Positions 52,873-64,000 of a stretch of DNA of 64,000 nt are shown piece after piece. The stretch is taken from the NCBI GenBank assembly GCA_963848295.1, contig CAWKDB010000011.1:320001-384000 (forward strand), given 5' to 3'. The position numbers and the translations under genes were made by a program. Position 1 is the stretch's first letter; every line of letters begins with the position of its first letter. Source of the DNA: an uncultured delta proteobacterium. GTDB taxonomy: Bacteria > Myxococcota_A > Polyangia > Haliangiales > Haliangiaceae. The notes under the pieces were generated by a model, which had not been told where the DNA came from, searched no databases, and saw only the letters and a program-made list of their open reading frames with translations.

Positions 52873-53844
52873 ATGAACGTCCTGGTTACCGGCGGTAACG
52901 GTTTCATCGGCTCGGTCGTGGTGCGCACCCTCGTGGCCGAAGGCCATAAGGTCCGTTGCCTGCTCAGGGAAACCAGCAAGACCGACCGGCTCGATGGCGT
53001 CACCTACGAACGCGCCATCGGCGACGTTCGTGACGCTGCTTCGATCACCGAAGCAGCCTCCGGCTGCGACGCGATCATCCATCTCGCGAGCCTGTCGGCC
53101 TGGGACCAGATCGACTCGCCCCTGATGGACGAGGTGGTCGAGGGCGGCACCCGCAACGTGCTCGCTACCGCCAAGGCAACGCCGGGGACGCGGGTCGTGT
53201 TCGTGTCGAGCATCCTCGCGGTCAACGGCTCGGATCGGCCGAAACAGTTCGACGAGGCGTCGGTCTGGACCGTGCCCGACGCGCACCTCAAGTACTCGCG
53301 CTGCAAGCGCCGCGCGGAGGCGATGTGCATGGCCGCGGTCCGCGAAGGCGTGCCGGTCATCATCGTCAACCCGGGCGAGGTCTACGGGCCGAACGATACC
53401 GCGCTGATCACCGCCTGCAACCTGATCGACTTCGCGAAGAGCAAGCCCGTGTTGGTGTGCAGCGGCGGCACGTCGGTCGTGTACATCGACGACGTCGCAC
53501 TCGCGATCGTGCGCGCGCTCGAGAAGGGCCGCGTCGGCGAGCGCTACATCCTCGGCGGCGACAACCTCAGCGTGCAGGACCTCGCGAAGCTGTCGCTCGA
53601 GCTGCTCGGCCAGAAGAAGACGATCCTCAAGGTGCCGAACGCGGTGATCAAAGCGATCGCGACGATCGGGACCAGGTTTCGCCTGCCGCTGCCGTTCAAC
53701 GCCCACGTCATCCCCTACGCCACGAAGTACTGGTTCATGTCGAACGCGAAGGCGAAGCGCGAGCTCGGGGTCGAGTTCCGCTCGGCGCGCGAGACGCTCG
53801 GTCCCACGCTCGACTGGCTGCGCCAGACCGGGAGGATCTCGTGA
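52873..53844 (+). CDS. NAD(P)-dependent epimerase/reductase (extended SDR, DFR/HpnA-like)
   Basis: TGGNGFIG, HLAS, YSRCK, VNPGEVYGP. Confidence 0.9.
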   Translation: MNVLVTGGNGFIGSVVVRTLVAEGHKVRCLLRETSKTDRLDGVTYERAIGDVRDAASITEAASGCDAIIHLASLSAWDQIDSPLMDEVVEGGTRNVLATAKATPGTRVVFVSSILAVNGSDRPKQFDEASVWTVPDAHLKYSRCKRRAEAMCMAAVREGVPVIIVNPGEVYGPNDTALITACNLIDFAKSKPVLVCSGGTSVVYIDDVALAIVRALEKGRVGERYILGGDNLSVQDLAKLSLELLGQKKTILKVPNAVIKAIATIGTRFRLPLPFNAHVIPYATKYWFMSNAKAKRELGVEFRSARETLGPTLDWLRQTGRIS

Positions 53845-55757
53845 AGCCCGAGCTCGTTCGCGATGACTGCCACCCGACCGCGCCGGTCGCGCACGCGCCT
53901 GCGATGCCGCGGCGCCCGATGACGGCGACCAACCCGAAGACGCTGCTCGATGCGCTCGAGCAGTGCCATCTCGTCGGCGACGTGCGCGGCTACGCGTTCG
54001 TCGCCGCCGACGGCAGCGAGACGATCTACGGGTTCAGGAGGCTCGTCGAAGAGGCGCGCAAGCGCGGTCGGCAGCTCGCCGGCATGGGCCTGCGCAAGGG
54101 CGATCGCGTCGCGCTCGTCATCCCCGATGCGACCGAGTTCGTGCTGACGTTCCTCGGCGCGGTCACCGCCGGCATCGTGCCGGTGCCGCTCTATCCGCCG
54201 CTGTCGCTCGGGCGGCTCGACGCGTATCTCGGCGGCATGGTCCGCACGCTCAACGCGGCGGCCGTCGATCTCGTGATCGCGACCGCGCAGGTACAAAAGG
54301 TCTTGTGGTCGGTGATGCCGCGGGTCCCGACCGCGCGCGATCTGATCACGGTGGAAGATCTCGCGTCGCGCGCCGAGTCCCCCGCGCCGGCGCCCGAGAT
54401 CGTGCCCACCGACCCGGTGTTCCTGCAGTTCACCTCGGGCTCGACCTCGACGCCGAAGGGCGTCGTCGTCACCCACGCTAGCCTGTGCGCGAACGGGATC
54501 GGGATCATGTTCCCCGGCCTGGAGATCGATCCGGAGACCGACAAGGCGGTCTCGTGGCTGCCGCTCTATCACGACATGGGCCTGATCGGCTTCGTGCTCG
54601 CGCCGCTGATCGCGACGCTGCCGGCGGTGTTCATGCCGACGCTGTCGTTCGTGAAACGGCCGACGCTGTGGATGGACGTGATCGATCGCCACCGCGGCAC
54701 GATCACGTTCGCGCCGAACTTCGCGTTCGCGCGACTGACCAAGCGCGCGAGCGACGCCGATCTCGCGAAGTGGGATCTGTCGTGCGTGCGCACCATGGGC
54801 TGCGGCGCCGAGCCGATCCACGCCGGCACGATGCGCGCGTTCCTCGATAAGTTCGCCGCCGCGAAGCTCGCATCGAACGTCTTGCTGCCGTGCTACGGCA
54901 TGGCCGAAGCGACGCTCGCGATGAGCTTCGTGCCGCTCGCCGCGGAGCTCCACGTCGACGCGATCGATCCCGACGCGTGCTACGCGGAGCGCAAGGCGGT
55001 GCCGGCGACCGCGCTCGGCGCGCTCGAGCTGGTGTCGTGCGGCAAGCCGTTCCCCGGCCACGAGCTCGGCATCTTCGACGACAACCATCACAAGCTCGGC
55101 GAGCGCCAGATCGGCGAGATCCGGTTCCGCGGACCATCTGTCGCCGCCGGGTACTTCCGCAACGCGGAAGTGTCCGCGAACGTGTTTCGCAGCGATGGCT
55201 GGCTGTGCACCGGCGACCTCGGCTACCTCGCCGACGGCAACCTGTACATCTCGGGTCGCAAGAAGGACATCCTGATCGTCCACGGCCGCAACTACTACCC
55301 GCAAGGGATCGAGTGGCTGGTCGAGGATGTCGCGGGCGTGCGCAAGGGCAACGTCGTCGTGTTCTCGGTGCCTGGGGCGACGTCCGAGGAGGTCGTCGTG
55401 GTCGCCGAGACGTCGGAGGCCGACGCCGACAAGCGCAAGCAGATCGCCCACGCGATCAAGGCGCACGTGTCGGAGGACATGTCGCTCGTCGTCGGGGACG
55501 TCACGCTGCTCGGCGTCGGCGAGCTGCCGAAGACGACGTCCGGCAAGGTCCAGCGCCAGAAGACGCGCACCGACTACCTCGCCGGCTCGCTCGGCAAAGA
55601 GGGCGTACGCAGCCTGTCATCGGGCGCGCAGAAGCTCGCGCTCGCGAGGCACGTCGCGGCGAGCTTCGTGTCGCGCGTTCGTCACACCGTCGGTACGCGA
55701 CTCGGCCTCGGCTGGCTCGCCAAGGCAAAGCCGGCTCCTGATCTGGAGGATCGCTAA
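53841..55757 (+). CDS. Fatty acyl-AMP ligase (FAAL)
   Basis: FLQFTSGSTSTPKG, SWLPLYHDMGLIG, CYGMAEATL, GRKKDILIVHGRNYYP, PKTTSGK. Start could be further downstream. Confidence 0.92.
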   Translation: MKPELVRDDCHPTAPVAHAPAMPRRPMTATNPKTLLDALEQCHLVGDVRGYAFVAADGSETIYGFRRLVEEARKRGRQLAGMGLRKGDRVALVIPDATEFVLTFLGAVTAGIVPVPLYPPLSLGRLDAYLGGMVRTLNAAAVDLVIATAQVQKVLWSVMPRVPTARDLITVEDLASRAESPAPAPEIVPTDPVFLQFTSGSTSTPKGVVVTHASLCANGIGIMFPGLEIDPETDKAVSWLPLYHDMGLIGFVLAPLIATLPAVFMPTLSFVKRPTLWMDVIDRHRGTITFAPNFAFARLTKRASDADLAKWDLSCVRTMGCGAEPIHAGTMRAFLDKFAAAKLASNVLLPCYGMAEATLAMSFVPLAAELHVDAIDPDACYAERKAVPATALGALELVSCGKPFPGHELGIFDDNHHKLGERQIGEIRFRGPSVAAGYFRNAEVSANVFRSDGWLCTGDLGYLADGNLYISGRKKDILIVHGRNYYPQGIEWLVEDVAGVRKGNVVVFSVPGATSEEVVVVAETSEADADKRKQIAHAIKAHVSEDMSLVVGDVTLLGVGELPKTTSGKVQRQKTRTDYLAGSLGKEGVRSLSSGAQKLALARHVAASFVSRVRHTVGTRLGLGWLAKAKPAPDLEDR

Positions 55758-63700: not shown

Positions 63701-64000
63701 ATCGCGCGGCGATCGGCGCGGTCGAGCGCTACGGCACGTCCGTGTCGGCGTCGCGCATCGCGTCGGGCGAGAAGCCGCTCCACCGCGAGCTCGAGCTCGC
63801 GATCGCCAAGTTCCTCGGCTGCGAAGACTCGATCGTGATGGTCGGCGGCCACGCGACCAACGTCAGCGTGATCGGCAACATCGTCGGGCCGGGCGACCTC
63901 GTGCTGCACGACGCGCTCGCGCACGACAGCATCCTCGGCGGCATCAAGCTGTCGGGCGCGCGCCGCCGGCCGTTCCCGCACAACGATTGGCAGGCCCTCG
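57730..64000 (+). CDS. Type I PKS KS-AT-ACP-KR-DH fused to a PLP alpha-oxoamine synthase domain (continues beyond window; absent from ORF track)
   Basis: Own translation, same frame at each checked motif: [28 protein letters not shown] (~58324), HGTAT, NIGHT, GHSLGE (~59737), HAFH, LGFDSL (Ser 60961), [65 protein letters not shown]. Confidence 0.95.
60670..60846 (+). repeat. Coding tandem repeat (GCCGCTGCCGTACCCGTC)n encoding an AAAVPV linker before the ACP
   Basis: Repeat is directly visible in the sequence. Confidence 0.9.
63256..63480 (+). repeat. Coding hexamer repeat (GGCAAC/GGAGTC/GGCATC) encoding a GN/GV/GI linker between DH and AOS
   Basis: Repeat is directly visible in the sequence. 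Confidence 0.92.

Follow-up and report, generated by a model that had tools for sequence, protein, structure and literature searches.

A polyketide synthase fused to an alpha-oxoamine synthase in an uncultured delta proteobacterium and its probable role in a carrier-protein route to a Δ4-unsaturated sphingoid base

Bacterial producers of sphingolipids are predicted from their Spt, bCerS and CerR genes, and the AasR-AcpR-Spt-bCerS-CerR pathway has been described for Caulobacter and E. coli B (PMC9386255, PMC11087976). A bacterial sphingolipid route combining a polyketide synthase (PKS) with an alpha-oxoamine synthase (AOS) was first shown in 2025: PfSgaAB of Pseudomonas fluorescens MYb115 makes C24-C28 sphinganines, PfSgaA being iterative and PfSgaB a serine-specific SPT that uses serine almost exclusively (PMC12134224). 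In undecylprodigiosin formation, RedL extends a fatty acyl chain and then releases it by a condensation with glycine that depends on pyridoxal phosphate (PLP) (PMC11188435). We analyzed a 64,000 bp stretch of DNA from an uncultured delta proteobacterium (assembly GCA_963848295.1, contig CAWKDB010000011.1), referred to as the window, in which a run of 13 co-directional genes around one giant PKS-AOS enzyme begins and extends past the window end. Coordinates follow the window numbering; the window is G000:C11:320001-384000, so that the position on contig C11 is the window coordinate + 320000. We propose, with a probability of roughly 0.6, that the cluster encodes a route in which a fatty acyl-AMP ligase (FAAL) primes the synthesis of a sphingoid base with a Δ4 double bond, and of the corresponding ceramide. 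It is probably a variant of the PKS/AOS sphingolipid route known in PfSgaAB, and no study of its fused form without an enoyl reductase (ER) was found in the literature covered.

The central gene is a single frame of 2352 amino acids with the domain order KS-AT-ACP-KR-DH, followed by a Gly/Asn linker and the AOS. A preliminary description of the window, which had ended within this gene, had proposed a PKS of that order with a C-terminal AOS; this was borne out, since the frame remains open to 64788 and the order recurs in 120 of the 120 best full-length relatives. Of 17 residues checked in these relatives, 16 were invariant (KS C204, H339 and H379; AT S672 and H776; ACP S1078; KR D1419 and Y1474; DH H1581, P1590 and D1756; AOS H2065, D2138, H2141, K2173 and R2297), and KR N1478 was kept in 117. 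The AT carries the motifs GHS and HAFH. In the AOS, D2138 and H2141 belong to a DEAH motif and K2173, the PLP lysine whose absence would have spoken against a working AOS, lies within GTLSK. An ER probe was cut from the PKSs of two loci, one of Pseudomonas with PKS, AOS and SDR genes (L101) and one of Sinorhizobium with PKS and AOS genes (L102); it matched both source PKSs and two others, but neither the window PKS nor any of the 120 relatives, and none of the 13 genes had a Pfam match to an enoyl reductase family. The PKS-AOS fusion is real, intact and widespread, and without earlier characterisation in the literature covered. The order KS-AT-ACP-KR-DH had been likened to that of iterative PfaA and enediyne PKSE enzymes. 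It is indeed shared, and a top NCBIfam match is PfaA-type; however, the score of 652 bits remains below the cut-off of 1010, and tandem ACPs are absent, Pfam finding one ACP domain only.

The AOS is 53% identical over 399 amino acids to the AOS of L101 and 33% identical to E. coli Spt. In a tree of 37 rows, which contained no canonical SPT, the window AOS, its fused myxobacterial relatives, L101 and L102 form one clade (support 100/99). This clade is of the SgaB type: the supplement of PMC12134224 shows an N-terminal portion of PfSgaB, and the L101 AOS agrees with it in a comparison by eye. The other three AOS of the genome fall outside it, long branches making their own placement unsure, and the genome gave no clear member of the Spt family. 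We rejected the idea that the fused AOS acts as BioF or KBL, because the genome has a separate KBL above the cut-off and a bioF-like gene elsewhere. A divergent AOS is found at G000:C10:4586799-4588031, below all NCBIfam cut-offs and with the KBL model as its best match (373 of 460 bits).

PfSgaA/SgaB/SgaC resembles the present cluster in that a type I PKS feeds an AOS of the same clade, a short-chain dehydrogenase/reductase (SDR) is proposed for 3-keto reduction, and the product is a sphingoid (PMC12134224). In contrast, PKS and AOS are one protein here and two genes in PfSgaAB; FAAL, a free ACP, a desaturase and a methyltransferase are placed in front; the SDR is extended, not classical; and capsule genes are absent. 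The PfSgaAB homologue L101 has the order KS-AT-DH-ER-KR, whereas ours lacks the ER, and the KS domains are 33% identical. With the AasR pathway the cluster shares an AasR-like acyl-ACP synthetase and a PLP-dependent condensing enzyme, and its free ACP and extended SDR may correspond to the dedicated ACP and the extended SDR of that pathway, but a PKS module stands between acyl-ACP and condensation, the AOS lies outside the Spt families, and the genome gave no match to YghO, the bCerS protein (PMC9386255, PMC11087976). RedL is alike by description in its fatty acyl starter, its one malonyl extension and its PLP-dependent amino-acid condensation as release, and differs from the present system, in which KR and DH are intact, ligase and ACP are separate genes, and the predicted product is open-chain (PMC11188435). 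The imidacin cluster was considered and set aside, as it has an ER and a urocanate starter (PMC11301661). Consequently, the cluster belongs to none of the systems compared, failing on the ER, gene fusion, Spt cut-offs or bCerS. We found no study of a fused KS-AT-ACP-KR-DH-AOS in a search that covered subscription journals little and did not extend to MIBiG; the same holds for a GH3-inosamine lipid. The earlier statement that this precise arrangement is absent from characterised clusters therefore held for the literature covered, although PfSgaAB and RedL are characterised precedents, and a list of 6,101 clusters homologous to PfSgaAB (PMC12134224) possibly lies outside this comparison.

The genes in front of the PKS were examined in related loci. 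Unless noted otherwise, counts refer to a set of 44 distinct loci whose flanks reach at least 4 kb upstream and 1.5 kb downstream, taken from 69 with a whole PKS frame and leaving out FAAL-fused forms and two duplicates. These counts describe and do not test, because the loci are related to each other and had been selected for their similarity. FAAL occurs near the PKS in 33/44 loci. The window copy is 35% identical over 520 amino acids to AasR of E. coli B (E 2e-106), is the genome's only close AasR match, and scores 512 bits against NF006624 (cut-off 600). It likely loads the stand-alone ACP, for which BLAST gave no match to E. coli AcpR at E 0.01. The PDB matches of the ferritin-like protein DES1 are acyl-ACP desaturases (best E 1e-6), and it carries the four diiron motifs known from the soluble members of that enzyme class (E59, E90xxH93, E142 and E175xxH178), which are invariant in 8/8 sequences, so that DES1 is likely an acyl-ACP desaturase. 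It occurs together with the CMAS-family methyltransferase in 9/44 loci, whereas the methyltransferase is alone in 4, of which 2 have a membrane desaturase upstream, and DES1 is alone in 2.

In E. coli Cfa, Glu239, His266 and Tyr317 are bicarbonate ligands, and the histidine holds the bicarbonate base for ring formation. The window methyltransferase keeps the equivalents of Glu239 and Tyr317, but in the alignment Gln183 occupies the position of His266 (His167 in CmaA1), and glutamine is found there in 23/23 cluster copies. The genome's stand-alone Cfa keeps His266. The preliminary description had left open whether the chain is cyclopropanated or methylated; because of this replacement, a methyl branch appears likelier than a cyclopropane. 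The His266-keeping Cfa lies beside another PKS cluster (G000:C2:128796-148129) with, as named by reading the sequence, two KS genes, an ACP, two hydrolases, glycosyltransferase-like genes and a desaturase-like gene.

Taken together, the genes suggest the following pathway. FAAL would adenylate a fatty acid and load it onto the free ACP, where DES1 would introduce a double bond and the methyltransferase would add a methyl group at this double bond. The KS would then accept the chain and the AT provide malonyl. Processing by KR and DH would stop at a 2-enoyl thioester, as expected of a PKS that lacks an ER, with a single round as the simplest case. The AOS would condense this thioester with serine and release 3-keto-sphing-4-enine. 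Hence, the Δ4 double bond would result from the missing ER rather than from a desaturase. Finally, an E2-fold protein encoded downstream would attach the N-acyl chain in place of bCerS, and the SDR, likely a 3-keto reductase, would reduce C3. The sphingoid base made is likely unsaturated and probably carries a methyl branch, and N-acylation and reduction would likely turn it into a membrane lipid of the ceramide type; palmitate and one extension would give a C20 base. The core of this scheme (FAAL loading the ACP, extension by the PKS, release by the AOS, reduction by the SDR to a sphingoid-like lipid) had been outlined before and is supported by the kinship of the AOS with the SgaB clade, the AasR-like FAAL and the ceramide-pathway genes in related loci, among them YghO/bCerS homologues, fatty-acid hydroxylase genes (5/44) and PAP2-type genes (4/44).

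The predicted Δ4 bond, second double bond and methyl branch are also those of the fungal 9-methyl-4,8-sphingadienine pathway, but fungi tailor the finished ceramide with desaturases, whereas here tailoring would precede assembly, on the ACP (PMC5954224). If our reading is true, the chemistry by which bacteria arrive at the sphingosine Δ4 bond and at a fungal-style methyl branch is a different one. The fungal C9-methyltransferase is a CMAS-family enzyme as well. A methyl-branched C20 sphingosine (C9-methyl) was reportedly found in a 2011 study of the lipids of Sorangium So ce56; the carrier-protein route, if true, would be a source for such sphingosines. No Sorangium name was found among the named matches, no search having been aimed at Sorangium genomes. 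The fullest version of the proposal, i.e., a widespread myxobacterial route in which a fungal-type base is built on carrier proteins (C20 from C16 + C2 + serine, 9-methyl-4,8-diene-like) and N-acylated by an E2-fold protein as a third, unrelated kind of ceramide synthase, we regard as doubtful. Further, this genome gave neither a clear Spt member nor a bCerS match and yet is likely that of a producer. In a phylum sample, 65 of 401 genomes had an AOS of this clade, so that prediction from the known genes may overlook a large number of producers.

The six genes of the preliminary description were confirmed on the forward strand, with successive gaps of -4, 0, 12, 5 and -4 bases and Pfam scores above cut-off for each (Table 1). 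Their tight coupling therefore stands, but not the end of the cluster at the PKS: inspection of the downstream sequence revealed seven more co-directional genes (DES2, E2-like protein, GH3, inositol synthase, DegT, flippase and ALDH), with gaps of -20 to 73 bases. Two metagenome contigs (L140, L145) have the same gene order downstream of the PKS. Because of this, and since the PKS domain order is the same in 120/120 relatives, chance or misassembly as origin of the gene order could be ruled out with L100, L140 and L145. A scan for promoters and terminators downstream gave no signal above shuffled sequences.

Table 1. Features of the cluster and its flanks in window coordinates.
Feature	Position	Strand	Remarks
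Inositol monophosphatase (IMPase)	51959..52795	-	PF00459, E 1.6e-70; divergent from operon; part of inositol module
Extended SDR, 323 aa	52873..53844	+	PF01370; GGNGFIG and YSRCK motifs
FAAL, 638 aa	53841..55757	+	GTG start overlaps SDR stop
CMAS-family S-adenosylmethionine (SAM) methyltransferase, 297 aa	55758..56651	+	PF02353, E 2e-48
Stand-alone acyl carrier protein, 83 aa	56664..56915	+	PF00550; MDS motif
Ferritin-like diiron enzyme DES1, 270 aa	56921..57733	+	PF03405
PKS-AOS fusion, 2352 aa	57730..64788	+	One open frame; 788 bases past window end (64000)
Ala/Val/Pro tandem repeat, linker preceding PKS ACP domain	60669..60849	+	
Gly/Asn tandem repeat, DH-AOS linker	63254..63484	+	
Second ferritin-like protein DES2	64769-65638	+	PF11583; beyond window
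E2-fold acyltransferase-like protein, 312 aa	65712-66650	+	PF00198; beyond window
GH3 amido-synthetase	66722-68299	+	PF03321; beyond window
Inositol-1-phosphate synthase	68300-69571	+	PF07994; beyond window
DegT aminotransferase	69574-70854	+	PF01041; beyond window
Flippase-like protein	70851-71822	+	PF03706; beyond window
Aldehyde dehydrogenase (ALDH)	71819-73390	+	PF00171; beyond window
GMC oxidoreductase	about 75420-77300	-	PF00732; convergent; beyond window

For the N-acyl step, we consider the E2-like protein a candidate ceramide synthase standing in for bCerS; if true, such an enzyme activity would be new. The core of the protein adopts the E2 fold (Foldseek E 2e-15; the three best hits have a TM by target of 0.74, 0.74 and 0.82), and the protein stands alone and carries no lipoyl domain. 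Two adjacent histidines (207-208) are conserved to at least 90% across 123 sequences. In other members of this family, the fusion partners are PAP2_3, ACP, wax-ester synthase and desaturase domains; one of the genes adjoins a ceramidase-family gene. The E2 gene follows the PKS in 12/44 loci and YghO is present in 10/44, but both together in 0/44. Three YghO queries gave no match in this genome, which is 85% complete, nor was YghO found in any of 10 E2-linked genomes with a query that was positive in 3/5 control genomes. Among the best 80 of 193 KS-seeded loci, 13 have YghO/bCerS homologues beside FAAL (28-37% identity, E at most 3e-34), a likeness of these relatives to the AasR-AcpR-Spt-bCerS-CerR pathway. 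In nine loci (L015, L016, L017, L023, L024, L025, L045, L048 and L066) YghO/bCerS forms a tandem pair divergent from FAAL. The YghO-like GNAT gave no PDB match.

DES2 keeps its diiron motifs and may be a hydroxylase: it is placed between PKS and E2 in 4 loci, a fatty-acid hydroxylase takes this place in 5 others, and the two never occur together. A PDB search with DES2 gave no useful match, and its single-sequence fold (pLDDT 45) was not used. A stand-alone DES1/DES2 pair in the window (37292-38958, reverse strand) is 73% and 68% identical to the operon copies, which suggests that DES1 and DES2 work together. This pair adjoins a region with a cbb3-type oxidase and a copper ATPase and a 4-hydroxyphenylpyruvate-dioxygenase-like gene, as named by reading.

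The closest named relatives of the KS are from metagenome-assembled genomes (MAGs) of Kofleriaceae, with 98% and 81-83% identity, so that the DNA likely stems from an uncultured myxobacterium of this family. Of the best 80 KS-seeded loci, 62 showed an AOS, in 61 cases within the KS frame, and 17 of the other 18 were cut by the locus end. In the phylum sample mentioned above, 57 of 66 AOS matches lie in frames >2000 amino acids. A class-wide KS search that scored five candidates per genome, and hence gives a lower bound, was positive in at least 15 of 301 genomes.

Several observations weigh against the proposed sphingoid pathway and its N-acyl step. The E2-like protein has DER in place of DHR, and the catalytic histidine of E2 enzymes is gone. 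Neither YghO nor E2 was seen in 22/44 loci within the stretch examined, and 3/5 YghO-type genomes have an E2-family gene elsewhere. As the loci are kin, the mutual exclusion of E2 and YghO may reflect few lineage events, and since FAAL is not nearby in 8/12 E2 loci, the E2-like protein might load starters instead. The SDR was found near the PKS in 19/44 loci and fused behind the AOS in L088 and L210, which agrees with the proposed reduction of a 3-keto group; its suggested link to ceramide reductase, however, is weak, as it matches the CerR type with 29% over 176 amino acids and the genome has three other SDRs with higher scores. Within the family to which the window belongs, the AOS clade is patchy (12/127 genomes), and thus the sphingoid product is not a core lipid of this family. 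The AOS scores below the cut-offs of all three SPT models (290/640, 267/500 and 202/670 bits), as does the AOS of L101, and it has AHDS where L101 has IHNS. The amino-acid choice is not readable from the AOS sequence, and a single extension round is an assumption, PfSgaA being iterative.

Part of these points bear on other products of the same genes. If the AOS used glycine, alanine or cysteate, the assembly line would yield a 1-deoxy-type amino alcohol or a sulfonolipid-like base, possibly an exported secondary metabolite. The amino acid used by an AOS enzyme leaves little trace in its sequence, KBL, BioF and cysteate acyltransferase score similarly to SPT among the PDB matches, and the patchy distribution and MMPL genes near the PKS in 7/44 loci would suit such a metabolite. 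Nevertheless, we consider this unlikely, as the nearest characterised member of the clade is serine-specific and PAP2-type genes, whose eukaryotic enzymes attach head groups to the C1 hydroxyl of ceramide, occur in 4/44 loci. Somewhat less likely again is an iterative PKS, which without an ER would make a conjugated polyene amino-lipid; if a reductase acted in trans, the product would instead be a saturated base of great length, comparable to the C24-C28 sphinganines of P. fluorescens. The PfaA-type domain order and top match, the iterative PfSgaA, the E2-linked loci without a nearby FAAL and a 4HBT thioesterase gene adjoining FAAL in 9 loci speak in its favor, but the frequent FAAL near the PKS points to a long preformed starter, and only one ACP domain and no enoyl reductase family were detected. 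RedL has the domain list A-ACP-KS-AT-ACP-OAS, and an alkaloid of this kind, in which a beta-ketoacyl chain is condensed with glycine, cyclised to a pyrrolinone and reduced to an alkylpyrrole, would fit the release by glycine condensation and the KS-ACP-AOS forms without KR and DH that follow the same FAAL-CMAS-ACP-DES1 front in L042 and L057. We hold it to be very improbable here, because the KR tyrosine and the DH catalytic residues are invariant in 120/120 relatives, so that a beta-keto group would be removed, and because related loci have ceramide-pathway neighbours.

The genes from GH3 to ALDH could also belong to the same pathway: the PKS-AOS base would be oxidised to an acid by GMC and ALDH, and GH3 would join an inositol-derived amine to it, giving an aminocyclitol-amide lipid exported by flippase and MMPL. 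In one Kofleriaceae genus both modules are adjacent in two arrangements, the GH3 block being downstream here and divergent in three relatives, and in the sample of the window's family (n=127) all 5 GH3-positive genomes have PKS-AOS. However, these 5 are all of one genus, and the adjacency may go back to one acquisition without implying a shared product. In the phylum sample, GH3 was found in 14/401 genomes, of which only 2 also have the AOS; 12/14 gave no AOS match at E 1e-90, and 63/65 AOS-positive genomes gave no GH3 match at E 1e-120. We further examined metagenome loci found with GH3 as the seed, many of them short; of 41, one remote match was excluded. Among the 40 loci kept, 30 had inositol synthase, 21 DegT, 14 ALDH, 12 MMPL, 12 flippase, 9 GMC, 8 IMPase and only 3 the PKS. 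Since GH3-seeded loci rarely show a PKS and few GH3 genomes have the AOS, we conclude that the GH3-inositol-aminotransferase block is a separable module, co-located here with the PKS genes, and a joint pathway is improbable.

By analogy, the separate GH3 module likely makes an N-acyl aminocyclitol. GH3 carries the three nucleotide-binding motifs of its family, as does OlsH, a GH3-like ornithine-lipid synthetase, but at 270 bits it is far below the cut-off of the OlsH NCBIfam model (620), and its genes lie beside those for inositol synthase and DegT aminotransferase, so that its amine is likely an aminocyclitol (PMC12493201). No inositol dehydrogenase was found among the genes of the block. The IMPase has a matching position in L004, L005, L009 and L144. 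An MMPL gene away from the cluster (G000:C10:1470593-1473076) shares 63% identity with the one that relatives carry between IMPase and GH3, and is possibly a relocated copy.

Among the other loci, two from actinomycetes (L042:6466-12922, from the cultured strain Planosporangium thailandense TBRC 5610, and L057:2-5960) combine the FAAL-CMAS-ACP-DES1 front with a trimmed KS-ACP-AOS without AT, KR and DH, and a third (L071:6046-13081) has this front with KS, ACP and an SDR-like gene but without AOS. RedL-like single proteins FAAL-(ACP)-KS-AT-(ACP)-AOS, i.e., ligase/ACP fusions absent from the window, are encoded in genomes of the same genus at L088:1-6645, L210:9997-17550 and L209:4346-11440; two of them (L088, L210) have a C-terminal SDR with a thioesterase-like gene next. 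In a Streptomyces locus (L011:7538-14971), about 800 MMPL-transporter-like residues precede KS-AT-ACP-AOS in one frame, and a Planktothrix plasmid (L104:5470-13068) encodes, amid FAAL and glycosyltransferase genes, an ER-containing PKS whose fused AOS falls into the clade of the window AOS. Myxobacterium-like copies were found in records titled as Enterobacteriaceae, Klebsiella or Bifidobacterium MAGs (L060, L061, L069, L074); these labels are probably wrong, and the tree places the L060 and L074 AOS together with rows of the phylum to which the window belongs. Upstream in the window, an alanine-racemase-like gene (PF01168) is followed by one for a large hydrolase-like protein (47387-50631, forward strand).

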